A program made the translations under genes and the position numbers. The notes beneath the pieces are model-generated. The model was not told the DNA's origin. It saw only the letters and a program-made list of their open reading frames with translations, and ran no database searches. DNA of 64,000 nt from a virus (lineage: Duplodnaviria; Caudoviricetes). The stretch is taken from positions 41,291 to 105,290 of the IMG/VR virus record IMGVR_UViG_3300037454_000475; one strand, 5' to 3'. This document shows positions 1-12,361 of this stretch, piece by piece. The stretch's first letter is position 1. Each line of letters starts with the position of its first letter.

Positions 1-104
1 TACGTGGGAACGTGTCCCACTTTCTATCTCTATTTATCTCGTGCTCGGAGTACGGAGCGAGCCCCTGTCGTTAATCACCATCCTTACCGTAAATGGCGAT
101 TTAG

Positions 105-192
105 TAGCGGGAGGAGGATTCGAACCTCCGACCTCCTTTTGGGAAGTACTGGCTTATGAGACCAGCGAGATAGTCCACTTCTCTACCCCGCG
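105..192 (-). tRNA. tRNA-Met(CAT), initiator-like, with a long variable arm
   Basis: Cloverleaf CGCGGGG...CTCATAA...GGTTCGAATCC; C1:U72 mismatch; 19-nt variable region with a hairpin. Confidence 0.8.
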
Positions 193-206
193 ATGTGTTT
201 TTAATG

Positions 207-363
207 TGGCCCCTCAAGGATTCGAACCTCGTACGCTTTCCAAAGCAGGGGCTCTTTGGAGTTTAATATCGAAAAACTCCTCGGGATCTAAAACGCATGA
301 CTTTCACATGATAGCCCAAGAGCTCTGTTGGGATATATAATAATCACCAGTCGTTAAGGGGCA
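207..363 (-). ncRNA. tRNA-framed RNA: acceptor stem and T-arm enclosing ~120 nt of hairpins
   Basis: GCCCCT/AGGGGC acceptor, CGAGG-TTCGAAT-CCTTG T-arm, four internal hairpins, no anticodon arm recognisable. Confidence 0.6.
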
Positions 364-389
364 ATTACTCCCTGTAGTTAGGTGAACTG

Positions 390-463
390 TGGTCCCGGGA
401 GGATTCGAACCTCCGACCTGCTGATTATGAGTCAGCTGCTCTAACCTGCTGCGCTACAAGACC
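390..463 (-). tRNA. tRNA-Ile2/Met (CAT)
   Basis: Canonical cloverleaf, GCTGA-CTCATAA-TCAGC; resembles lysidine-type Ile2. Confidence 0.85.
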
Positions 464-623
464 GAAGGATAATGTCCTTGTTTTCCGGCGAGAGGAGGCG
501 CTTTGCAAAGATTTTTGGACGTAATAACATCCAGTCCGGAGCTCCTCAAGGAACGGTATTATACGGTGCACCGAACGCAGATTTACATGGAATTAACCAA
601 TACGGCGTACAAGCGACATTATT

Positions 624-695
624 GCGGGGAGAACAGGATTCGAACCCATCTTATTTACGGCCTATGAACTTACTTTACCGGTATTAGCTCTTCCC
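624..695 (-). ncRNA. Degenerate tRNA-like element
   Basis: T-arm ATGGG-TTCGAAT-CCTGT and acceptor GGGAAGA/TCTCCCC; D and anticodon arms not canonical. Confidence 0.4.
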
Positions 696-774
696 GGTGT
701 TTCTTTTCAAATCCAACCTAACGGATAAAAGCCGGCCTCACGTTAGGAGCATCCCCAATATTTGTTTCCGGCAT

Positions 775-852
775 TGGTTGCGGGAACCGGATTCGAACCG
801 GTGTGGAACGGCTTATGAGACCGTGCTGGAACCATCTCCAGTCTATCCCGCA
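775..852 (-). tRNA. tRNA-Met(CAT)
   Basis: Cloverleaf, ACGGT-CTCATAA-GCCGT, encoded CCA. Confidence 0.85.
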
Positions 853-860
853 ATAAATAG

Positions 861-977
861 GTGCTTGGGTTGGACTCGCACCAACAACCTTCCGGTCTCA
901 TCCGGAGGCTCTACATAACCGCGGTGGTATTGATCAGATACCTGCTGACATCATGCCCCTATTTGAGCTACCAAGCT
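861..977 (-). ncRNA. tRNA-like RNA with ~53-nt D-loop and 6-nt anticodon loop
   Basis: GCTTGG/CCAAGC acceptor, GCTC/GAGC D-stem, TCCGG-ATGAGA-CCGGA, GTTGG-TGCGAGT-CCAAC. Confidence 0.65.
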
Positions 978-1500
978 ACGCATGTGCACTGCGCTTTTGA
1001 TTGTTTGGTGTATTAACGCCACACCGGCGTATTGGACGCCGATCAGATGACCGCATCGGCGCGCGGACTCTTGCTGTTAACGCAATAGTTGCAACGACCT
1101 TTCATGATTAGACTTTGCCTTCGTCGTCCCGGCGCCGTCCCTACTGGATCTGTTGGAGTCTGTCCCACTTCCGTTCCGTTCCTGTAAGAGTATCGAACAT
1201 CCGTGGTAAGCCGTCTTTCGGGAACCAAATATGTTTATCGCTTCCGGCATTGCATCGGCCCTCTCTTTGTGAATATATGGTCGTCTTTGGGCTTCTTGGC
1301 GGATTGGCTGGATGTTATCGCCTTTTCGGCCACGTGATCTTTCACAGCATCAGCGCCTTTCAATCCTGATGGTTTCCTGTTACATCGGGTGCCTATCATT
1401 TCAGCTACCTTTCATTTCGGCAGGAGTTAATTGAGGGGCGGACACGGGTCGGCCCAGGGCGGCAAAAGCCGCGGAATTACTCCACCCAGTTTAATCACAA

Positions 1501-1577
1501 TGGTGGACACAGAAGGGCTTCGAACCCTCGACCTCCTGACTGCCAGTCAGGCGTTCTACCAACTGAACTACTGGCCC
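1501..1577 (-). tRNA. tRNA-Ala(GGC)
   Basis: CCTGA-CTGGCAG-TCAGG, G3:U70, encoded CCA, one bulge in the acceptor stem. Confidence 0.85.
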
Positions 1578-1897
1578 ATAACATTCTCGGATGTTTTCTC
1601 CTTTATCTTATCACAAGACCAATTTCAGGTCAACTACCACTTGCAAATCTAACTCTTTGTTTGCGCGCGGGGAGGTTGTCGATCCTCCGTCTTCCGTGAA
1701 TGCTTTGATAAACACACTTCGGTTCTTTGTTGAGCTCGCGGATGGCATTTTATGGCTCCAATTCACCGGCGGGGTCATGACTCCCCAATGGCTGTCCGTT
1801 ATATTTCTATGGTTTAATCTTTCAACCTCCGAGGTCGTTCGGCGTTCCTCTGTAGGTTTTTTAATGCGCGCTAACCTACTTAATTATTGTGTGTTTG

Positions 1898-1970
1898 TCG
1901 GGTTAGGTGGGCTCGAACCACCGACCTATCGCGTATCAGGCGAGTGCTCTACCAACTGAGCTACAACCCG
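1898..1970 (-). tRNA. tRNA-Ile(GAT)
   Basis: Cloverleaf, loop CTGATAC. Confidence 0.9.
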
Positions 1971-2244
1971 GTGAGGCGGATGGAATCACTTCTTTCCGCC
2001 AATCTCATGGATACGACCAATCACTTTCCGTTTATTCGGTACTGTCAGGTGTTGGGTCGATTACTTCCACCACCCTACTGGCAGCGATCTCCTGATTTCA
2101 GCATATAGCAAACCGGTGAGTTTTGGGCCGCTTTCGGCCACGGGTGTGATTTAGTAACGTGAAATCGTATCCGTATATCTTTACCGCCCATTATACAAAG
2201 TTCCGTTCAGGTGGTTAACCATCCCTTCCAGCGATATGTGGCGG

Positions 2245-2320
2245 ATAAGAATCAATCAAATGTCTCCCAATATGTCAAAGAACGTTGTTCTTTGTTGTTG
2301 GAACCTTGTTCCTTCAACAC
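2245..2320 (-). promoter_or_regulatory. Leader with hairpin and boxA (GTTCTTTGACATATT), copy 1
   Basis: 39 nt identical to 9619-9657; directly downstream of a promoter. Confidence 0.7.
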
Positions 2321-2321
2321 C

Positions 2322-2353
2322 TATATATAATAAACACCGCTGATTTATTAACA
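2322..2353 (-). promoter_or_regulatory. Phage promoter TGTTAA-N18-TATATATA
   Basis: One of 7 copies with identical spacing. Confidence 0.75.
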
Positions 2354-2378
2354 AGGAAATTGAAAAAAAAATCGCTTG

Positions 2379-2449
2379 AGGCTCTTACTGGACTCGAACC
2401 AGTGTCTGTTGACTACGAAACAACTATTCTACCCCTAAACTAAAAAGCC
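2379..2449 (-). tRNA. tRNA-Thr(CGT)
   Basis: Cloverleaf, loop TTCGTAG. Confidence 0.8.
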
Positions 2450-2533
2450 ATGGACGGGGTTTTTGTTATTTTCTCATCGAGTGTTAGCCCCCGAAACTCA
2501 TAACTCGATAAAGTTGGGCGCTACCCAACACGC

Positions 2534-2606
2534 GGCGTATGTGCGGTGCTCGAACCCGCCAACAGGAGATTTGGTCCCCTCGCTCGCCATCTTGCGTTAC
2601 ATACTC
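2534..2606 (-). ncRNA. tRNA-like RNA with 5-nt anticodon loop
   Basis: GTATG/CATAC acceptor, AGGGGA-CCAAA-TCTCCT, GGTTCGAGC T-loop. Confidence 0.5.
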
Positions 2607-2692
2607 ATATGCGGTTAATTACTCCGCACGGGTACCCTCTCTTTCTCTTTCAATACCGCGTCCGATATTTACTCATACTCAAGTCAGGTCTG

Positions 2693-2773
2693 TACCCCGA
2701 GAGGGACTCGAACCCTCACCCTTTCGGACTGGGTTTTGAAGCCAGCGCGTCCTGCCAATTTCGCCACCGGGGT
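2693..2773 (-). tRNA. tRNA-Leu(CAA)
   Basis: Class II cloverleaf, loop TTCAAAA. Confidence 0.85.
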
Positions 2774-2951
2774 GTAAATAGGATTTCCTCTTATACTACC
2801 CATGAGGGAAACCCAAAAAGCTAACATGCACGTACACATACGATTACGTGACCCATCGGTGTCCCATATCCATCACCGAAGCGATGCACAGAGGGTGTGA
2901 GCAGCTGTACGATCCCAAGTACTGACCGGTACTTCGTTGGGCTTTCATGTC

Positions 2952-3911
2952 TTATATCTTCCCGTTAAACGGGTTCGGTATTCCGTAAATTTTGTAGATC
3001 AAATGATCATTTATATCAAATGGGTTACCATACAACTTCGAGTACCTAAATATGCAATCGTTCTTGTATTTTTCAAACATTTCATCGGTATAGGTAAGTT
3101 CCTTGTACTTCTCCCTAAAATCCATGGCAGCTTTCCAATCAAGATCCCGGATATCCTCAACCGGATCATCCATAACCGTTAACAAACCTTCAAAATAATT
3201 GAATGTGGAAGCTGATGTCAGTATATGTTTACCCATACAGATGTTCTCAAATATGCGAACCACATTTTGTGAAATTGCGGTATCCGATTCCGGGTTATGA
3301 GGTACGTCCAAAATAAATTTGGTGTTGTACACAACATCCTTGATTTCGTTGGGTCTCAATCCTTCGATACAATAAAATGACTTATCAATAAGTTTGATTT
3401 CATCAAAATATTTTTTTCTCGAACTTGATGCTTGACCAAAAAATCCAAGATTATAATCATAATCCCCGGAATTTCCGATGTGCTCTGATTGATTGTAAAA
3501 TCTTAATGGCATCCACTTGAGCTTGTTCCATTGATTTGGGAGGAGTTCCTTGTAATACTCAAAGGATTCCAGCCACAAAAGCCATATTTCATCAACATCC
3601 TGCAACCATTCATCTTCCATGTACGGCATAACCCAATACGGTGAATGTTCGGTTTCAAGTAATATCAACTTATTGTATCTCGCCTTTATTTCCTTGAGAT
3701 CGTACAAATTGATTGGTTGGGTTGGATATGGCTTTATGTCAAACGGAGCTTTTTTCGAATCAAACCGATCAATACATGGCCAATTGAATATGAGTGTCCC
3801 TTGTGGTTCGGTTTCATCATAGTGCTCAAGGATCATATCCCGAACGCTTGTGATATCCGAATTGAAGAATACACTAATATTTTTGCCACGTTGCAAATAG
3901 TTGATCTTCAT
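2952..3911 (-). CDS. Putative GT-B glycosyltransferase (319 aa) inserted in the tRNA array
   Basis: Start reassigned to MKINYL; C-terminal LGFFG..RKK / NTKFILDV / RIFENICMGK resembles CgeB/GT1-like domains. Confidence 0.55.
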   Translation of the reverse strand: MKINYLQRGKNISVFFNSDITSVRDMILEHYDETEPQGTLIFNWPCIDRFDSKKAPFDIKPYPTQPINLYDLKEIKARYNKLILLETEHSPYWVMPYMEDEWLQDVDEIWLLWLESFEYYKELLPNQWNKLKWMPLRFYNQSEHIGNSGDYDYNLGFFGQASSSRKKYFDEIKLIDKSFYCIEGLRPNEIKDVVYNTKFILDVPHNPESDTAISQNVVRIFENICMGKHILTSASTFNYFEGLLTVMDDPVEDIRDLDWKAAMDFREKYKELTYTDEMFEKYKNDCIFRYSKLYGNPFDINDHLIYKIYGIPNPFNGKI

Positions 3912-3928
3912 ATGTTTGCTTTTTATTG

Positions 3929-3997
3929 CACAACCTGTGAGGAATTGAACCTCAACCCCCGGCCGCGCCGGTGCTCTATACCGTGAGCTACAGGTGT
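3929..3997 (-). ncRNA. tRNA-like RNA with a 3-nt anticodon loop
   Basis: Normal D-arm GCTC/GAGC and T-arm; anticodon arm CCGGC-GCG-GCCGG. Confidence 0.65.
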
Positions 3998-4152
3998 ACT
4001 TCCGAATCGCACGGAATGCGGTTCCTTCAGGAGCCGGTAACTCTGTTTCCACCAGTTGGGTCAGGAACATACCCCCGCCTATTGCTACCAAGACGGCTAA
4101 TCCCTTCTCTTTTATATCGCCCGGTAGGGAACGTGCTATCACATGTGAAAAG

Positions 4153-4223
4153 TTGTCCCGTCGGGATTCGAACCCAAAATTACAGATCCAAAATCTGTCG
4201 TGTTACCGTTACACTACGAGACA
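4153..4223 (-). tRNA. tRNA-Gln(TTG)
   Basis: Cloverleaf, ACAGA-TTTTGGA-TCTGT. Confidence 0.9.
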
Positions 4224-4336
4224 ATAGTAACCCAACCTACCTCAACTTCTATTTTGCTTCATTGGCATCCTGAACCTCCGGAGAGTGGAACTTAAACCCT
4301 TTCACTGGTCTTTCAACCTTCTATCGGTTGGGTTTG

Positions 4337-4408
4337 TTGTTCTAACTGGATTCGAACCAATTCCTCCTGATCCAGGGTCAGGTGTACTACCGGATATACT
4401 ATGGAACA
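4337..4408 (-). tRNA. tRNA-Gln(CTG)
   Basis: CCTGA-CCCTGGA-TCAGG; C33 instead of U33. Confidence 0.8.
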
Positions 4409-4450
4409 ATCAACTTTGGTATAATATATGAAACCTTTACAAGAATTTCG

Positions 4451-4849
4451 TTATTCAACAATATTTATTCGGCAATTGCAGTTCTCATAAGATATCTTAC
4501 CATCTCCATTTTCAAGTATGTAATAATAATCATCCTGTGTTATTTCCAACCCTTTGAATCTGCATTGGTTGCCTCTGTGATCAATGACTTGTTTTCCAAG
4601 GTTATATTTCACATATTCACATATTGGCTTCATATTTCCGCATCCGGATCTTTCGATTTGTGAATCAACAAAATCTTCCGGTTTGGTAAGTTGAAGGCTG
4701 TAACCAATAGTGCTGAAATACGATGGAGTAAATAGTCCCAATCTTGTAAATATGCGGAACCATATACTTTCATACCAATCAAGCATCTGCTTTATGGATT
4801 TGAATCGTATTGTGTAATGAAATGGTAACCTTAAACGCATATACCGCAT
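4451..4849 (-). CDS. Hypothetical protein
   Basis: 132-aa AT-rich ORF between tRNAs. Confidence 0.65.
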   Translation of the reverse strand: MRYMRLRLPFHYTIRFKSIKQMLDWYESIWFRIFTRLGLFTPSYFSTIGYSLQLTKPEDFVDSQIERSGCGNMKPICEYVKYNLGKQVIDHRGNQCRFKGLEITQDDYYYILENGDGKISYENCNCRINIVE

Positions 4850-4866
4850 ATACCATATTTTATTTG

Positions 4867-4941
4867 CCCGAACGAACGGTTACGATCCGTCTATTTTACC
4901 GGAGTGACAGTCCGGTTCCTCACCAAGAGGCCTACGCTCGG
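4867..4941 (-). tRNA. tRNA-Asp(GTC), atypical T-loop
   Basis: CCGGA-CTGTCAC-TCCGG; T-loop ATCGTAA. Confidence 0.75.
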
Positions 4942-5000
4942 ATAGAACCACGCTTTATTTTTGTCATTGTATGATGAAGCATGGGTGAACATCACATGCG

Positions 5001-5156
5001 TGGGTATGGGTGGAATTGAACCTTGAACAACGCCGTTACTCCTGTCTTACTTGCCGCGGATTTTCGTACAGTTTCTCAACGCCGTAAACCTAACCCTCTA
5101 AATAAGAGGAACCTCCCTCACTGGAGGCCCCGCTACCGTTACGGGGTTACATACCC
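5001..5156 (-). ncRNA. tRNA-Tyr-like frame with anticodon arm replaced by a ~95-nt multi-hairpin insert
   Basis: GGGTATG/CATACCC acceptor, CCCCGTAACGGTAGCGGGG D-arm, GGTTCAATTCC. Confidence 0.6.
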
Positions 5157-5162
5157 ATATGT

Positions 5163-5236
5163 TGGCAGGGGTGGATGGAATCGAACCACCAACTACGGTT
5201 TTGGAGACCGGCATTATACCGTTTAACTACACCCCT
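5163..5236 (-). tRNA. tRNA-Trp(CCA)
   Basis: Loop CTCCAAA, encoded CCA. Confidence 0.9.
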
Positions 5237-5330
5237 ATACGTGTACCATTCACCATGTTCGAACGGTACCAATGTCACCACAACTCTATTGTTTCACCAT
5301 TATGTCCGGAGCGGTGGGAGAAGACACGCG

Positions 5331-5403
5331 TGGGAAGGAGTGGAGTCGAACCACTATCTTCGGATTTTCAGTCCGCCGCATAGACCTGCTTTGCTACCTT
5401 CCC
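5331..5403 (-). tRNA. tRNA-Phe(GAA)
   Basis: Loop CTGAAAA. Confidence 0.9.
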
Positions 5404-5410
5404 ATATATG

Positions 5411-5493
5411 CGGAGAGCAGAGGAATCGAACCTCATACGTTGCCGTACACACAATTTAGCAGAATGGTTCCTTGCCTGAAGGATTTACTCTCC
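5411..5493 (-). tRNA. tRNA-Ser(GCT)
   Basis: Class II, loop CTGCTAA, weak anticodon stem. Confidence 0.75.
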
Positions 5494-5502
5494 ATTAAGA
5501 AA

Positions 5503-5781
5503 AAACCGAGTAAGAATTGATGATCACGAAGACCTCGAATTACATGGCGAGCTACGGACTGGAGAAACGGCGGCTGGTTACGCCGATTGCATTACCACGT
5601 AGGGTTTTACCTCCTGTTGCGTTGCGCGTATGGCTCCTCACGGACAAGACCCTTTCGGGGTACCAACACTCTTCACGGAGCTGACGGTCTGCCTTCGGCT
5701 ACCGGCGCCTACATGCACGCTTATTCCGGAATTACACGTACACTTACCTCCGACACTACTGGGTGGCCCTATACTCGGTTT
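5503..5781 (-). ncRNA. Candidate ~280-nt structured RNA
   Basis: Closed by a perfect 10-bp stem AAACCGAGTA/TACTCGGTTT; internal GNRA hairpins (CCCC-GAAA-GGG, CTCC-GTGA-AGAG). Confidence 0.5.
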
Positions 5782-5799
5782 AACCGAATGAACGGTTTG

Positions 5800-5876
5800 T
5801 GGAGCAGATGACGGGGTTCGAACCCGCAAACCTCCTGCTTGGCAAGCAGGCTATCTACCAATTGATATACATCTGC
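5800..5876 (-). tRNA. tRNA-Gly(GCC)
   Basis: CCTGC-TTGCCAA-GCAGG, encoded CCA. Confidence 0.9.
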
Positions 5877-6061
5877 ATGGATGCAAGTCGCTAACGTTCT
5901 CTCGAAACCTCACTTGCGAACCCGGCCGTGGTTCATGGTTTTGGCTGATCTACCTCCTCACAGCTGGCGCCCGGATTATATGGCAAATCCGGGTTAGCCC
6001 CGTTTTACTCCGCCGGGAAGCACTTATTGTCTCCGGCCCCCGGTCGCTTAACGGTACAGCG

Positions 6062-6143
6062 TTGGAAGGGAGGGATTCGAACCCCCGAACCCAATGGGAG
6101 TGGATTTACAGTCCACCGCGTTTAACCACTTCGCTACCTTCCA
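6062..6143 (-). tRNA. tRNA-Tyr(GTA)
   Basis: GTGGA-CTGTAAA-TCCAC, class II. Confidence 0.9.
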
Positions 6144-6286
6144 ATGTTTGGAACTAATGAAGCTGTGTCAACTTTCATTCTTCATCCGAGTTAAAGAATT
6201 ATCTGTCATTTAACTAATGTGACCATTGTATTCAAGGCGCCCGGCCACTATCCTCGGTTTTTGTACTTCATGTCATTGTCCCATTG

Positions 6287-6382
6287 TGCCGCCGGTAGGG
6301 CTCGAACCTACTTACTGCTAAAGTCCACTACGAAAATTTGTTAAAGCAGATCGGTTTTACAGACCGGTTCCGTTACGTCGGC
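6287..6382 (-). ncRNA. D-armless tRNA(GTA)-like RNA with ~39-nt variable arm
   Basis: 8-nt connector instead of D-arm; CGGT-CTGTAAA-ACCG; CTGCT/AGCAG variable stem; GTAGG-TTCGAGC-CCTAC. Confidence 0.65.
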
Positions 6383-6427
6383 ATTATAATAACTCCCATA
6401 TTACTTGGCTGTATACCCTATAGGAAC

Positions 6428-6489
6428 GTGCGTTGTTTGGAGTCGAACCAAATTCAGTAACAGCATCACTTGACAAATGCTTCGCGCAC
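6428..6489 (-). ncRNA. Mini tRNA-like element lacking an anticodon arm
   Basis: GTGCG/CGCAC ends, GCAT/ATGC hairpin, TTTGG-TTCGACT-CCAAA. Confidence 0.5.
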
Positions 6490-6523
6490 TACCTTTCCAG
6501 TTTATACAGCATGAAAGGAATTG

Positions 6524-6595
6524 AGCCGATGGAGGGATTCGAACCCCCGACCAACTGATTACAAAACAGTAGCGCTACCACTGCGCCACATCGGC
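6524..6595 (-). tRNA. tRNA-Thr(TGT)
   Basis: Loop TTTGTAA. Confidence 0.9.
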
Positions 6596-6602
6596 TTATC
6601 TG

Positions 6603-6676
6603 TCTCCCTGGAGGGACTCGAACCCCCAACCTTATGATCCGTAGTCATGCGCTCTATCCAATTGGGCTACAGGGAG
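6603..6676 (-). tRNA. tRNA-Arg(ACG)
   Basis: Loop CTACGGA. Confidence 0.9.
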
Positions 6677-6764
6677 GAGTTTGAAGAGTTACTACGCTAC
6701 CCTTCGAAGCTGTTCCAACGGTGCCTTATCAGGCAGCGATGGCCATTTTTGATCTATTGCCGTT

Positions 6765-6850
6765 TGGCGGAGAATTGAGGTATCGATCCCCATACAGAAT
6801 GTACAGCACGTTTTCAAGACGGCTCCCCTCACCATCAGGGTTAATTCTCC
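6765..6850 (-). tRNA. tRNA-Ser(TGA)
   Basis: Loop CTTGAAA, class II, encoded CCA, T-loop ATCGATA. Confidence 0.8.
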
Positions 6851-6949
6851 AATGGAGCCGCTTTCGAGTGATCCCGGACACTACCCCGGCGGGCGCGGCA
6901 TACCCATATGTGTTTGTGCGATTGTATCCTATAAAAGGTGGGTGAGAAC

Positions 6950-7250
6950 TACGCCCTCACCCGTGGCTGTGCTTCGGTGCCTAACTTTAGGCAGCGATAG
7001 CCATTTCAGTACGTGCGCCAGTTATTGCGCGGACACCATCTCTTTTGTTCCTTCGGCCGCTGTCAAAACCAAACACCCCCATATGAGAAGGTTTATACGA
7101 TACCTACAAACGTTTGGGGACACCGTATGGCATCGATCCACCACCGATTTTTACGAAATCGGAAACGTCTTTAATTGGCGAAAGAGTGGAGGTGACGGGA
7201 GTCGAACCCGTGTCCAAACGGATTATCTAACAAAATACAAACGATTGTGC
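6950..7250 (-). ncRNA. ssrA: Circularly permuted (two-piece) tmRNA; tag (A)GARTEMAIAA at 7019-6987
   Basis: Acceptor piece ending GGACACGGGTTCGACTCCCGTCACCTCCA (7187) lies upstream of 5' piece GGGGGTGTTTGGTTTTGACAGCGG (7080); 7-bp acceptor stem with G3:U; outer limits approximate. Confidence 0.9.
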
Positions 7251-7254
7251 CATG

Positions 7255-7328
7255 CGGTGTTGAAGGGGCTCGAACCCTCGACCTCCGCCGTGACAGGGCG
7301 GCATTCTAACCAGCTGAACTACAACACC
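7255..7328 (-). tRNA. tRNA-Asp(GTC)
   Basis: Canonical, CCGCC-CTGTCAC-GGCGG. Confidence 0.95.
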
Positions 7329-7451
7329 ATATAGAAATCCAACTCAAAAATCCGTAGACGTGGGGGTGAAAAAGGAAAGGAGGTGACCCACAAGCCGTTC
7401 GTTCGGCATCGGATTAAAACCTGTTGGATACTGCGGACGCAGTGGTTTTTG

Positions 7452-7524
7452 CGGGATCAGAAGGAATCGAACCTTCAACCTACGGATTAACAGTCCGGTG
7501 CTCTACCGATTGAGCTATGAACCC
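7452..7524 (-). tRNA. tRNA-Asn(GTT)
   Basis: Loop CTGTTAA. Confidence 0.9.
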
Positions 7525-7584
7525 ATATTTTGCAGATTTTATTGTCAGCTGGTAACGTCTGCAAACCTTACTGACAACCTTTCG

Positions 7585-7658
7585 CGGGGGAGGTGGGGAT
7601 CGAACCCACGACCATGTGCTTAACGGGCACCCGCTACGACCAACCGAGCTCCTCCCCC
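7585..7658 (-). tRNA. tRNA-Asn(GTT), C33 variant
   Basis: Loop CCGTTAA. Confidence 0.75.
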
Positions 7659-7669
7659 ATTATTAAAAG

Positions 7670-7742
7670 TACCACCGGTGGGATTCGAACCCACAACCTC
7701 ACGGTTAAGAGCCGCGAGCTCTGCCAATTGAGCTACGGAGGT
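7670..7742 (-). tRNA. tRNA-Lys(CTT)
   Basis: Loop CTCTTAA. Confidence 0.9.
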
Positions 7743-7822
7743 ATGATGATCGGATATTGTAGCATTAGGTACAAGTGCACCCTGAGGCATGTTTCACCTC
7801 GGATCTCGGCATATCCGATTTG

Positions 7823-7895
7823 TGCTCCCGGTGGGACTCGAACCCACAACTCCCACATTAAAAGTGTGGTACTCTGCCAGTTGAGTTACGAAAGC
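7823..7895 (-). tRNA. tRNA-Lys(TTT)
   Basis: CCACA-CTTTTAA-TGTGG. Confidence 0.9.
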
Positions 7896-7946
7896 CTACT
7901 GTTTACCTGATTTGTCGTCTTCCACGACAGTGCGTTTTCGTCTCAT
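7896..7946 (-). CDS. 16-aa mini-ORF MRRKRTVVEDDKSGKQ abutting tRNA-Lys
   Basis: A-rich leader, ATG; stop codon directly precedes tRNA nucleotide 1; paralog at 8055-8114. Confidence 0.5.
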   Translation of the reverse strand: MRRKRTVVEDDKSGKQ

Positions 7947-7988
7947 GTTATTAATTTTTTATTTGTTTCAGTTTAAGTGTGACTTAAT

Positions 7989-8064
7989 TGGTGCTCCCGC
8001 AGGGACTCGAACCCTGAACTCCCGGAGTAAAAGTCCGGTACTCTACCAATTAAGTTACGAGAGC
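7989..8064 (-). tRNA. tRNA-Lys(TTT)
   Basis: CCGGA-CTTTTAC-TCCGG, encoded CCA. Confidence 0.9.
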
Positions 8065-8114
8065 CAACGTTTACCTGATTTACCGTCCTTTACGGCTTTA
8101 CGTTTTCGTCTCAT
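8055..8114 (-). CDS. 19-aa mini-ORF MRRKRKAVKDGKSGKRWLS overlapping the tRNA-Lys 5' end
   Basis: Paralog of 7896-7946 with conserved frame. Confidence 0.5.
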   Translation of the reverse strand: MRRKRKAVKDGKSGKRWLS

Positions 8115-8551
8115 AGCTTAAATGTTTATTTGATTGTTGTTCGCCCTTTAATTAAAAACACCCTACGAACGTTGTACTCGGCAACCTCGGATATTGTGGA
8201 GGGCCCATCCACGGTTTTGACCAGCTAAAGTTTGATGGTGCTTGGTATCCCAATCTCCACTTGCTCGCCTGCGGATGGCGGATGCCGCTGTGGCCCGGCA
8301 ACTGGCAACGGAGTACCCATCCGATCAGGGCCGTGCTGTTCCTTGGCCAACACGGATACCATTTAGACCTCCAATAGTTATCGAAACCTGAAGTATCCAC
8401 CTACCATCAGGGGAAGTTTGCAACCTTCCCGGGAATCCAGTTTCAACCTCCCGTCCTTTACACCACCTCGCGCATTTCACGGATCAGCCTTCTCCGGAGT
8501 TGCCTTCGCTCTCACGGCCGCGTGGTTCCACGGATTGGAGTATTGTTTCTG

Positions 8552-8719
8552 TGATCTCGGTGGGAGTTGAACCCACATTACCATAATCGTTTGCTTTACC
8601 ACTGCAATGGTGGGGCGACTAACACGCGTTGTCGCGCTGTCCTCCCCCAAACTTTCAGGTACTACCACTATATCCCAGTGTGAATCTGTTGCAGCATCAT
8701 CTCTTTGGAGTACGAGACC
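8552..8719 (-). ncRNA. tRNA-framed RNA with ~130-nt internal domain
   Basis: GGTCTCG/CGAGATC acceptor, GTGGG-TTCAACT-CCCAC T-arm. Confidence 0.6.
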
Positions 8720-8730
8720 TTTTAAATATG

Positions 8731-8867
8731 CACCAAGACGAGGATTCGAACCTCGGCCTCAATGTCCTCTCGGGCATTGTATTCTGTCCTCTTTCCATCG
8801 TGGCAACTCCGGCCGGCTGTACAACCAGCTTATTGGTCTTACCACGACTTCATCTAACTACCTTGAT
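8731..8867 (-). ncRNA. tRNA-like RNA with expanded D region and a GAGA tetraloop in place of the anticodon loop
   Basis: ATCAAGG/TCTTGGT acceptor, CAATGCCC-GAGA-GGACATTG, CGAGG-TTCGAAT-CCTCG. Confidence 0.65.
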
Positions 8868-9051
8868 TGATTGATTATTTCCCTCACTCATCAACCGGTG
8901 GTGATTCGCGACTCACCACCCGACCCTATTTGCCGGTTCAAACTCTACCGGTGTCGGCTGATTACGTTACGCGGGAGAAGCTACCTCCCTGGAAGGTACT
9001 CTACCTTCCCAAACAGAATTGTTTGTTATGAATGAGTTATTTCCTCAACTT

Positions 9052-9124
9052 GTGGATTGGTGGGATTCGATACCCACATCACGCGGTTGCATACGACCGG
9101 AATATTACTTATACTTACAATCCA
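9052..9124 (-). ncRNA. Degenerate tRNA-like element
   Basis: TGGATTG/CAATCCA acceptor, GTGGG-TATCGAAT-CCCAC; irregular anticodon arm. Confidence 0.5.
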
Positions 9125-9430
9125 TCGGCCTCGAGATTACCATACGTTTCTCCTGTTGGCTGTGCACACCAACAACTCCCCTACGGACGCCATCCTCTGT
9201 ACTCTGTTGACTTTCGGTTTACTGCAGCACCTACATGGTCCAACGTTTCCGTGACTTTACGCGACTGGCTCTTGTGAGAAGACCTCGTTATTATCGGACG
9301 CTTTTGCATCGATTCTTTGTCCGATTGCCTCTTAACCTTGTGTTACGCCTGTGTTCCGGTGGCCGGAGTGGTATCTCCCAATCGAGCTTTTGTACCACTG
9401 CTAACACTGCTCTGAAGAGATTCAAACTTG

Positions 9431-9503
9431 AGCGAAGAATGGGACTCGAACCCACGATCTCGACCTTGGCAAGGTCATATTCTACCAACTGAACTACCTT
9501 CGC
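9431..9503 (-). tRNA. tRNA-Gly(GCC)
   Basis: GACC-TTGCCAA-GGTC. Confidence 0.9.
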
Positions 9504-9618
9504 ACCGTGGGGAGGCGATATCTCATCTACCTCCCCGTATATCTTGATCAGCCTTTGACCCACGGTTAATATTCCAGTGAAGGGCAAACCGCATATTATT
9601 TCAGGTTGTTTCGGCTGA

Positions 9619-9702
9619 ATAAGAATCAATCAAATGTCTCCCAATATGTCAAAGAACCCTTGTTTTATGTTGGTTGGAACGTTTTATCGTTCCTTTCAAC
9701 GT
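9619..9702 (-). promoter_or_regulatory. Leader with hairpin and boxA, copy 2
   Basis: 39 nt identical to 2245-2283. Confidence 0.7.
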
Positions 9703-9703
9703 C

Positions 9704-9735
9704 TATATATAATCAACCTCCTGCGAAACTTAACA
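9704..9735 (-). promoter_or_regulatory. Phage promoter TGTTAA-N18-TATATATA
   Basis: Recurrent motif, heads the tRNA array. Confidence 0.75.
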
Positions 9736-9801
9736 CTCTATCGAAACTTTTTTGAAACTTTTTTGTTTTTTGTTCATTTGCAAGTATTTATAATAGGTAT
9801 T

Positions 9802-9833
9802 AAAAAAGGTCATCCGTTTTTGCGAATGACCTT
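9802..9833 (-). terminator. Intrinsic terminator, possibly part of an attenuator
   Basis: AAGGTCATTCG/CGGATGACCTT hairpin followed by a U-run. Confidence 0.7.
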
Positions 9834-9874
9834 CTTGTGTGGGGGTTATATTTCAAATTGTCATTCGCCTTCTT

Positions 9875-9976
9875 CTATCCCCCTTGCTTGGCATCATAGC
9901 CGCAAAATCCTTCATTACCGAGTACAATGGCGGTATTCATGGCTGCTGGGCGGCTCCATGATTGTTTCAATGTCAT
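9875..9976 (-). CDS. 33-aa candidate leader peptide MTLKQSWSRPAAMNTAIVLGNEGFCGYDAKQGG
   Basis: ORF ends just before a 9-nt segment complementary to the terminator 5' arm. Confidence 0.4.
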   Translation of the reverse strand: MTLKQSWSRPAAMNTAIVLGNEGFCGYDAKQGG

Positions 9977-10122
9977 TGTATGTAGGGATAAATTCATCGA
10001 ATGATTTTTAATTCTTTCTAATATGGATAATAGGACAGGTTTTTTAAGTTTTTAACTTTTTTGCAAAAAAATAATGGAGACCATTGCTGATCCCCATTAT
10101 ATTTTTGATCTCCGTGGTTTCG

Positions 10123-11178
10123 TTATTCACGGGTGATCGTTGCGCACCTTGAAAGCTCAACAGTGTCATAGGCATCCAACTTCGTGGTAACCTGAATGTT
10201 GGTATACCCATTCTGCTCAAGGATGGCTTTCACTGCGGCGGCACGGGCGTTAGCCAAATCGGAGTTGTAATTCTCGGTTCCGGTCTTCGTATCGGCGGAT
10301 CCAACAATCACGATGTTGGCGTTCTTGTCAACATTGGCCATAAAGATATCCAAACGCTGCATCTCCGTGGTAGTAATGGTTGAGCTATTCTTTGCGAAGG
10401 TAAGAAGTGTGTTGTTGGTGTTCACCTCAACAATCTTCTCAACAATCTTTTCGACAATAACGGTATCTCTCTCCACCTCACGGTTCATACATCTCATGCA
10501 TTCATCGTACATGGTGTAAAGCTCCGAGTATTGCTGGTCGGTATACGTCTTATCGCAGATCACGAAGTTATGGGAACCGGTCTTATTTGACTTAAATCGA
10601 TAAGCCACGCCGATGTTGGCCTGAAGATCCGCATGCTTTACCATTGGTTCGATGTGACGGGACTGGAGGATTTCGTGAGATACGACTTGAGGTGTAAACG
10701 TAATGTACCAAGCGCGTTCTTTACCTAAATTGAAATCAAATTCGAGGCCGGCGTTCAATGATATATCGTTGGGGTTACTTGAGTTGAACATATGATCCCA
10801 TCCGATACCGGTTACGGTTTGAATTTCAAAAATCCTTGGTTGGCCTTTGTACCCGGCAAACAAATTCATTAGGTTGAACTTGACGTTTCCGTTCAAATTC
10901 GTTGCACTGATGGCAAAACCGTCCTCGAAGTTAGGTCTCATGTATCCAACCAACGAAAACCCGGTGATAGGGGTAACGTTCTTGCCAAGTTCAAGACCGG
11001 CGTTCCAGTCCAAGGTATTGAACTCAAAATTATCGTAGTTGGAAACAGGGTTGTGAATGGCACCGCCATTGATGCCAACATACATGTTGGAAAAAACACC
11101 ACCGCGTTCAACGGTTTGAGCATTTGTGATTGTGAAAGCCATAAACAAGGCGATCATCAAAGAAATAATTTTCTTCAT
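10123..11178 (-). CDS. OmpA-family outer membrane protein (Bacteroidales type)
   Basis: Signal peptide, beta-barrel, C-terminal GSADTKTG..YN..LA.ARA.AV OmpA domain. Confidence 0.9.
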   Translation of the reverse strand: MKKIISLMIALFMAFTITNAQTVERGGVFSNMYVGINGGAIHNPVSNYDNFEFNTLDWNAGLELGKNVTPITGFSLVGYMRPNFEDGFAISATNLNGNVKFNLMNLFAGYKGQPRIFEIQTVTGIGWDHMFNSSNPNDISLNAGLEFDFNLGKERAWYITFTPQVVSHEILQSRHIEPMVKHADLQANIGVAYRFKSNKTGSHNFVICDKTYTDQQYSELYTMYDECMRCMNREVERDTVIVEKIVEKIVEVNTNNTLLTFAKNSSTITTTEMQRLDIFMANVDKNANIVIVGSADTKTGTENYNSDLANARAAAVKAILEQNGYTNIQVTTKLDAYDTVELSRCATITRE

Positions 11179-11406
11179 AGTGATTTAATTTTTTATTACG
11201 ATTAAAGTTTATTTGTAAGGTATGTTATAAAATAGAAAAAGTTTTCAGGATTTTTCAATAAACATTGTGTTTATCGAGCACTTCCATAACCAAGTTTTCC
11301 GTAACATGCTCTGAACGAGCAATTTCTGCAATCGTGCATGGCTCGTTTATATACATATATATTATACTGTCGATCTGATCCCTGGTGAGATCCTTATAAT
11401 TTGATA

Positions 11407-11682
11407 TCATGGTTTGGCCTTTTTTCTTTGTATGTGATAAACATATAGGAGTTCAATCCGGTTATTTCCGTATCGCCTTATGTATAAATCCGCCAAATCT
11501 CCGGTCTTACGTCTCCTGAATGATATCCGATAGTCCTCGAAAAATTCAACGGTGGAATTATCGCAGATATAATCCAAATCCTCCCCGAGATATTCGATAT
11601 CCGGATTGTCATTTGTTTTCACCACCTCCTGTAATTCCGGTAGCGTATACTTCTTTCCAAATAACCGGACTTTTTCCTTCAT
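11407..11682 (-). CDS. Hypothetical protein
   Basis: ORF coupled to the upstream gene. Confidence 0.65.
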   Translation of the reverse strand: MKEKVRLFGKKYTLPELQEVVKTNDNPDIEYLGEDLDYICDNSTVEFFEDYRISFRRRKTGDLADLYIRRYGNNRIELLYVYHIQRKKAKP

Positions 11683-11683
11683 A

Positions 11684-12361
11684 TTATTTCCACTCGATCA
11701 GCTCATGGCCGTTATCAGTGTCCAGTACAAAAGCCTTACGGCAATCCAAACAAGCGAACTCGTTGGTGATTATAGGGTTTTCCATTTGCTGGGTATGCCC
11801 GAAGATTTGATATAATCCTTCGATCTTGGAAGAATCATAGTATTCATCCACATCCCCCCATACACAACTGCCACATTTTTCCCAGCCACCTCTATACGGG
11901 GATACCTGCATCAATGCGTTGTACATTTCGGGGGACATATTGGCGATGTCACAATTCAATAAATCCTCGATGGTGAGGTTATTTGCCTGCAACCATAACG
12001 GAAGTACACCGGAATGGGAGAATAGGATATCACCATCTTTATGGGCGAGCTTGAGGTTCATCCGGACAAGGTATCCGTGGATCTCATCCTTATGATAACG
12101 GTCAAATCTGTCCGCCATGTTACCCATAATATAATTACCATCGTGGTTACCGAATAGGCATACCACCTTATCCGGATGGGTTTCTATGAACGGAACAAGA
12201 TTATCACGGAGACGGTGACGGGATGTATCCGTGCTTACTTGGAAGGTATATGGGTCGTGATAATCGCCCAAGAATATGACCTTGTCAAATTCATCAATGT
12301 GTTCGCATGGTTTCATCCAAAAATCACGGCCATGCACATCCGGTATAACGAGTATTTTCAT
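11684..12361 (-). CDS. Calcineurin-like metallophosphoesterase
   Basis: DVHG, GDYHD, GNHD, HSG, GHT motifs. Confidence 0.9.
   Translation of the reverse strand: MKILVIPDVHGRDFWMKPCEHIDEFDKVIFLGDYHDPYTFQVSTDTSRHRLRDNLVPFIETHPDKVVCLFGNHDGNYIMGNMADRFDRYHKDEIHGYLVRMNLKLAHKDGDILFSHSGVLPLWLQANNLTIEDLLNCDIANMSPEMYNALMQVSPYRGGWEKCGSCVWGDVDEYYDSSKIEGLYQIFGHTQQMENPIITNEFACLDCRKAFVLDTDNGHELIEWK

Follow-up and report, generated by a model that had tools for sequence, protein, structure and literature searches.

In the leader-peptide attenuators of amino-acid operons and of pheST (trpL, hisL, pheL and pheM), a very short open reading frame (ORF) with its own initiation signal lies in the transcribed leader of the regulated gene. 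The ORF contains codons cognate to the product and overlaps with a conserved hairpin, and the peptide is otherwise poorly conserved. ORFs that abut tRNA processing sites are known from mitochondria ("tRNA punctuation"), and the E. coli tyrT operon contains the small basic tpr ORF. PrrC-type anticodon nucleases cleave tRNA-Lys(UUU). To our knowledge, tRNA genes are generally thought to be without gene-specific, demand-sensing control. A literature search on leader peptides before tRNA genes and on translated tRNA leaders found no precedent. Depending on the structure and pairing of the 5′ leader, RNase P rates can differ by orders of magnitude, and in polycistronic pre-tRNAs stem-loops set the order of processing (PMC10731613). 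The tRNA-Lys of phage T5 counters PARIS AriB, a defence that cleaves tRNA-Lys (PMC11464382), and anticodon-loop variants of phage tRNA-Lys rescue infection (PMC10264068).

Here we describe a locus at which a small clade of phages keeps a 16-codon frame, a gene-start signal and a hairpin fused to the 5′ end of tRNA-Lys(UUU). All the features of leader-peptide attenuators listed above are found here as well. Unlike in the attenuators, the product is a tRNA and not an mRNA, the three AAA codons are dispersed and do not form a run, a single hairpin is present without a terminator U-tract or alternative helices, and control would act on folding or processing and not on transcription termination. 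In the way it works, the element comes closest to leader-peptide control, yet it lacks the terminator. As in tRNA punctuation, the frame ends at or within one nucleotide of the tRNA processing site (in the related contig L027 the stop TA|G uses tRNA nucleotide 1), and as in tpr/tyrT the peptide encoded within the tRNA operon is small and very basic; unlike both, the ORF is located upstream, has only 16 codons and is conserved along with an RNA hairpin. With structured pre-tRNA leaders it shares a stem-loop and a single-stranded A-rich tract within a polycistronic array, and a proximal leader that is unstructured, which is the preference of RNase P; leaders of that kind are not known to have an initiation signal or an ORF that closes where RNase P cleaves, and the hairpin here is 17 nt away from the cleavage site (PMC10731613). 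Like the phage tRNA-Lys countermeasures, the locus provides the phage's own tRNA-Lys(UUU), here in two copies with different anticodon stems, whereas the studies of those countermeasures deal with the mature tRNA sequence and describe no regulatory leader (PMC11464382, PMC10264068).

The window, which is the whole stretch of 64,000 nucleotides analysed, covers the right-hand 64 kb of a virus record in IMG/VR that is 105 kb long and has an estimated completeness of about 58%. The record contains 40 tRNA genes and a circularly permuted tmRNA, nearly all of them in one 16-kb island on the minus strand. The tmRNA (6987-7234, minus strand; Rfam RF04321, 63 bits; ARAGORN tag GARTEMAIAA followed by a stop) is located about 600 nt downstream of the Lys modules. 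Gene starts of the phage have no Shine-Dalgarno sequence, but an A-rich tract at −11 to −19 and an A at −3. An A-rich initiation region and an A at −3 are published determinants of initiation in Bacteroidetes (PMC6847099), and because the start pattern of the phage equals this one, the host of this small clade of large phages is probably a member of the Bacteroidota. T4-like genes found in relatives include those for gp13, an RNA ligase and a glucosyltransferase. The 73 long ORFs of the phage end with TAA (62), TGA (10) or TAG (1). A tRNA with the anticodon CUA is carried by a distant relative (L005, L006); the recoding of TAG or TGA that was suspected from it was rejected, and ORF lengths are the same under alternative codes.

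Both modules are encoded on the minus strand. In module 1, an AAATAAA box (8125..8131) starts 17 nt 5′ of the ATG (8114-8112) of mini-ORF 1 (MRRKRKAVKDGKSGKRWLS, 8055..8114). The leader is 50 nt long, and the ORF has 19 codons (four AAA, one AAG) and ends 10 nt into the tRNA, with a TAA (8057-8055) at tRNA nucleotides 8-10. The stop at the junction is lost in this ORF (TGG is found there) and the frame closes 9 nt further on; in the orthologue L027:8187-8236 the stop consists of TA plus G1 of the tRNA. RNAfold and RNAalifold predict leader hairpin 1 (GCCGU-AAAGG-ACGGU, 8082..8096). The tRNA-Lys(UUU) copy 1 (7989..8064; ARAGORN; Rfam RF00005, 69.3 bits) has the anticodon stem CCGGA/UCCGG and an encoded CCA. 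In module 2, the AAATAAA box (7958..7964) starts 18 nt 5′ of the ATG (7946-7944) of mini-ORF 2 (MRRKRTVVEDDKSGKQ, 7896..7946), which has 16 codons (three AAA) in a leader of 51 nt. Its TAG stop (7898-7896) occupies positions −3 to −1, immediately 5′ of tRNA nucleotide 1 (7895). Leader hairpin 2 (UGUCGU-GGAAG-ACGACA, 7913..7929) is predicted with the same two programs, and the tRNA-Lys(UUU) copy 2 (7822..7895; ARAGORN; Rfam RF00005, 65.9 bits) has the anticodon stem CCACA/UGUGG. ORF2 represents the widespread, orthologous type, with orthologues in L016, L027, L028, L030 and L031/L033.

The preliminary description of this DNA had placed mini-ORFs with Lys codons at the 5′ ends of both tRNA-Lys(UUU) genes, and codon counts and stops of the ORFs are as it gave them. 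It had also reported a hairpin of different sequence in each leader. Both hairpins are present at the same leader position, but they are homologous position for position and not unrelated sequences; they differ by one compensatory pair (C-G versus U-A) and one G-U/G-C change. Motifs ATGAGACGAAAACG and AAATCAGGTAAAC are common to both leaders, their exact copies in the window are confined to these leaders, and a 19-nt segment holding the hairpin separates them. The two copies in the window are clearly paralogous units of about 150 nt each. The anticodon arms of the tRNAs differ (CCGGA-CUUUUAC-UCCGG in copy 1 versus CCACA-CUUUUAA-UGUGG in copy 2), and that of copy 2 is also present in unrelated phage tRNA-Lys genes. 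The difference between the copies may be relevant to escape from defences that cleave tRNA-Lys.

As a chance control, the 150 nt upstream of all 40 tRNAs were scanned for ATG-ORFs of at least nine residues that end between −15 and +40. About half of the 40 tRNAs are preceded by such an ORF. Nine of these ORFs end at +10, and in eight of the nine, tRNA nucleotides 8-10 are TAG or TAA. A mini-ORF that touches a tRNA is therefore no evidence by itself. Chance is exceeded by two other features: the module is duplicated as a whole, and relatives conserve it.

Relatives were found via an OmpA-like gene located 2 kb upstream (10123-11178), which has many homologues. Contigs with an OmpA-like homologue of at least 75% identity are syntenic. 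L016, L028, L030 and L031/L033 have one module each, of the copy-2 type, and L027 has both types. Thus, beside the window, the module is present in five related phage contigs, and altogether eight distinct leader-plus-tRNA sequences from six genomes or contigs were aligned. In the OmpA relatives with less than 70% identity (L018, L020, L023-25 and L029) synteny is gone and no tRNA island is found nearby; the contigs L017, L021, L032 and L036 end short of the locus. Scans of IMG/VR with exact leader patterns found no further copies. The sole pattern match in JGI metagenomes, L026, was rejected as a chance match: it is a GC-rich contig without a tRNA. The leader is absent from 13 IMG/VR tRNA-Lys loci found with a D-arm pattern, from L005 and from LR756501, a 735-kb phage whose tRNA is 87% identical. 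Since the unrelated phage tRNA-Lys genes examined are without the leader, it is specific to this clade.

Conservation of the frame and the AAA codons in relatives was a check set beforehand in the preliminary description, and the alignment bore it out: ATG, frame and the three core AAA codons are present in all eight versions. None of them has an indel inside the ORF, and the hairpin is kept in all. The junction stop is kept in seven of the eight, six with TAG or TAA at −3 to −1 and L027 copy 1 with TA plus G1 of the tRNA; in the eighth, window copy 1, the stop is at +8 to +10. Between orthologous copy-2 leaders, 3-5 of the 51 positions are different (6-10%), and between the two copy-1 leaders 8 of 50 (16%), counts that are small and come from only about five independent lineages. 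Four-fold degenerate sites in the adjoining OmpA-like gene of the same genomes differ by 33-55%. The 30 nt 5′ of the ATG are only about half conserved, with indels, and the trailers are unrelated. A sliding-window comparison of the island shows blocks of 98-100% identity interspersed with spacers of 50-75%; because conserved blocks alternate with diverged spacers, the island as a whole is not simply young. The leader is clearly under purifying selection.

These data bear on the simplest alternative, also named in the preliminary description, that a tandem duplication of the tRNA with its upstream flank left a neutral relic in which ORF and hairpin arose by chance. The paralogy of the two window copies and the frequency of chance ORFs upstream of tRNAs agree with it. 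A relic would not be expected to keep its frame in eight versions, in relatives with one copy as well as with two, at 6-10% divergence against 33-55% at neutral sites, nor to retain compensatory pairs and an invariant box between flanks that have decayed or been replaced on both sides. We consider it extremely improbable; a neutral duplication relic appears largely refuted and can be excluded for practical purposes.

Further conserved segments are found in the same island. The non-coding blocks 8400-8750, 8850-9100 and 9300-9450 (minus strand) are 98-100% identical to L016, and the four-fold sites of the gene adjoining them are 52% different from L016. These blocks, located between tRNA-Gly and tRNA-Lys, are strongly selected structured RNAs. 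The island also contains variable ORFs; in relatives, Endonuclease_7 genes adjoin tRNA-Lys/Asn (L027:9279-9821, L030:8539-9081). An ORF of 396 amino acids at 2952-4142 (minus strand) has no family matches, and its first ~57 residues alone match relatives. Two other mini-ORFs have good initiation scores. One, MNKKQKSFKKVSIEC (9777-9730, minus strand), is located directly 3′ of a TATAAATA box and upstream of the operon; the other, MKKNYYGRL (C1:39866-39837, minus strand), lies outside the window between tRNA-Leu(UAA) and tRNA-Glu.

All eight modules have the AAATAAA box without any change; it starts 17-19 nt 5′ of the ATG, amid an otherwise variable spacer. The same heptamer with the same spacing is found at real gene starts: of the 52 AAATAAA copies in the genome, 27 are followed by an ATG at a distance of 13-22 nt (examples are 49842-49836, 46333-46327 and 16615-16609, all on the minus strand), and about 19 of these 27 open ORFs of at least 54 amino acids. 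The box is the phage's own gene-start signal, of the translation-initiation type. A TATATA-like box is found 25-35 nt upstream of many genes and likewise at the start of the tRNA operon near 9704. A position-weight matrix for the start context was built from the 73 long ORFs. The ATGs of the mini-ORFs score 6.8-13.3 bits (real-gene median 8.0). For the island's 285 ATGs on the sense strand, the mean score is −6.7 and the 95th percentile 1.1; all eight mini-ORF ATGs are at or above the 98.6th percentile. The predicted unpaired fraction between −18 and +9 is 0.47-0.85 for the mini-ORFs, compared with an interquartile range of 0.47-0.64 for real genes and a median of 0.43 for island ATGs. The claim of an A-rich leader of the Bacteroidetes type therefore holds, as the ATG context scores like that of the real genes of the phage. 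As in leader-peptide attenuators, a short leader ORF with a functional-looking initiation region is present. This start signal is the most independent argument for translation, and we put the chance that the selected leader is translated at about one half.

The most probable function of such translation would be to gate folding and maturation of tRNA-Lys(UUU) through ribosome occupancy. Each cassette has the order AAATAAA box, 16-codon ORF with the hairpin, stop at the RNase P site, tRNA-Lys(UUU). We infer that ribosomes load onto the polycistronic pre-tRNA and translate as far as the junction. A terminating ribosome at a stop codon covers roughly the first dozen downstream nucleotides, which here belong to the tRNA. 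Because a ribosome at the junction stop would cover these first nucleotides, the tRNA should not be able to fold or undergo 5′ maturation while ribosomes travel along the leader, and vice versa, and the mini-ORF would be a cis-acting modulator of tRNA-Lys(UUU) output. We favour this reading tentatively and give it somewhat less than an even chance.

At the coding level, Nei-Gojobori estimates of pN/pS are 0.37 for the frame of the ORF, compared with 1.42 and 0.99 for the two alternative frames, values that rest on small counts and to which wobble positions of the loop contribute. The peptide itself is not conserved, because the compensatory changes in the hairpin are non-synonymous (V7A with D11G; V8T) and codons 6 and 16 are hypervariable, codon 6 being T, N, D, S or K. 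The peptide centres of the paralogues read VVEDD versus AVKDG or ATKDG. The frame ends with TAG in four versions out of eight (in three different leader sequences), compared with one of the 73 long phage ORFs, and rare codons are used (CGA, 7%, and AGA, 12% of Arg codons). These traits are not gene-like and would be expected of an incidental ORF or of a leader ORF that acts in cis, not of a peptide gene.

They have to be set against the possibility that a functional basic/acidic peptide of 16 residues, M[RK]RKR-x-VVEDD-KSGK-x, is made from an mRNA whose 3′ end is generated by RNase P in the style of tRNA punctuation. A gene-like start signal, a stop exactly at the processing site and the conserved N-terminal M[RK]RKR and C-terminal KSGK would be expected of such a gene. 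However, the conserved ends are conserved in nucleotides too, wobble positions included, the centre differs strongly between paralogues in addition to the hypervariable codons, and no homologue is found outside the modules in the genome or in the loci retrieved. We regard a functional peptide as very unlikely.

RNAalifold predicts the tRNA cloverleaf and a single leader hairpin, so that a conserved secondary structure is found in the 5′ leader of the pre-tRNA. Of the six hairpin pairs, two have changed on both sides in a compensatory manner (U-A/C-G and G-C/A-U), and a third varies between G-C and G-U; hairpin 1 has a change from G-C to A-U against L027 copy 1 and from C-G to U-A against copy 2. 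Altogether, 95.8% of the hairpin cells in the alignment are paired, while controls with slid partners reach at most 55%. Variable leader positions are in the loop, immediately 5′ of the stem and in the last 5 nt. The hairpin of 5-6 bp is surrounded by the invariant A-rich motifs AUGARACGAAAACG and AAAUCAGGWAAAC. The four-fold sites of the ORF (CGA, CGC, GTC, GTG, TCA and GGT; seven sites) have 0-1 changes per pair of sequences versus 2.5-3.7 expected. Since these synonymous sites are frozen, selection acts on the nucleotides themselves, and RNA-level selection alone could account for the conservation. An Rfam cmscan (E ≤ 1, window positions 1-12000) found nothing in 7896-7946 or 8065-8114, and elsewhere only the tRNAs, the permuted tmRNA and sub-threshold matches at chance level; a T-box riboswitch or another curated RNA family was thus not detected with Rfam.

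These observations raise the possibility that the leader acts as RNA alone. The hairpin and the two invariant single-stranded motifs would then form a structured pre-tRNA 5′ leader, which could serve RNase P or another endonuclease as a landing pad or timing device, or could be a protein-binding site or a stabiliser within the polycistronic precursor. The ORF would be incidental, and the AAATAAA box would have an RNA-level role that it also plays at gene starts. The compensatory changes in two pairs with 96% of cells paired, the restriction of variation to loop, 5′ stem junction and last 5 nt, the synonymous positions far below the neutral rate, the many strongly conserved non-coding RNA blocks of the island and the TAG stops and rare codons, which are atypical of phage genes, all speak for it. 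Such a leader would also fit known RNase P substrates, although 17 nt separate the end of the hairpin from the cleavage site, which places it beyond the contact zone of the RNase P protein (PMC10731613). It leaves unexplained why an ATG follows the invariant AAATAAA at gene-like spacing in all eight versions, why the frame is open exactly to the tRNA junction and why pN/pS is lower in that frame only. We consider an RNA-only leader, the main rival of ribosome gating, quite possible, if less likely than not.

No sigma-70-type match, no Bacteroidetes TAnnTTTG and no TATATA-type box was found before either module. Both modules seem to lie inside the operon, and because no promoter-like box precedes them, any translation would take place on a polycistronic precursor. 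The mutually exclusive antiterminator and terminator helices of attenuators are not present: one hairpin of 5-6 bp is followed by AAAUCAGG, and neither a U-tract in sense orientation nor a conserved alternative helix is found in the leader. The sole terminator match, a weak terminator-like site on the antisense strand, was dismissed as irrelevant. Classical attenuation is excluded because there is neither a terminator nor an architecture of alternative helices. Pairing of the leader with the acceptor stem (AUGARA:UYUCGU) is possible in all eight versions, with a variable pair that is A-U, G-U or G-C, and is predicted in nascent transcripts, but it is no better than with dinucleotide-shuffled leaders. 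Anti-acceptor pairing was therefore not adopted as an explanation of the leader.

AAA is found at codons 4, 12 and 15 in all eight versions and never replaced by AAG, although the ratio of AAA to AAG in phage genes is 52:48. Under the coding usage of the phage, three or more AAA in 15 codons have a probability of 0.016; the count is unremarkable for a leader with about 45% A. The three codons are dispersed and not clustered, and neighbouring non-Lys synonymous sites (CGA, TCA and GGT) are frozen equally.

The preliminary description had interpreted the leader as a feedback sensor, which is a special case of the gating proposed above. The AAA codons would be hungry codons: if Lys-tRNA(UUU) became scarce, as under attack by an anticodon nuclease, ribosomes would stall early, and a stall at AAA4 or AAA12 would leave the tRNA free for folding and processing, so that its output would rise. 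The invariance of the three AAA codons and their excess over coding usage are consistent with this, as is the position of the stop, from which a ribosome during termination would in every version reach into the acceptor stem. In addition, tRNA-Lys is a known target of nucleases in phage defence, and infection is rescued by tRNA-Lys variants of phages (PMC11464382, PMC10264068). Against Lys sensing, the AAA codons are dispersed and ordinary in number for such an A-rich leader, the adjacent non-Lys synonymous sites are just as frozen, mutually exclusive helices and a terminator are lacking, pairing between leader and acceptor is at the shuffled level, and the unrelated phage tRNA-Lys genes examined have no such leader. 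The earlier interpretation was thus right in that the leader is conserved and its frame kept, but with dispersed AAA codons and no alternative helices, the proposed function in AAA sensing and RNase P processing finds no specific support. We consider Lys sensing unlikely.

The cassette is small (about 150 nt) and portable, and the AAATAAA gene-start signal is useful for the annotation of small genes in these genomes. Even if the leader acts as RNA only, a cleanly delimited, selected leader element would be present in a phage tRNA array. If the leader is translated, the ribosome would directly gate the maturation of a tRNA, namely tRNA-Lys(UUU). Should Lys sensing be true, the phage would have a feedback loop read by the ribosome that releases its replacement tRNA after depletion.
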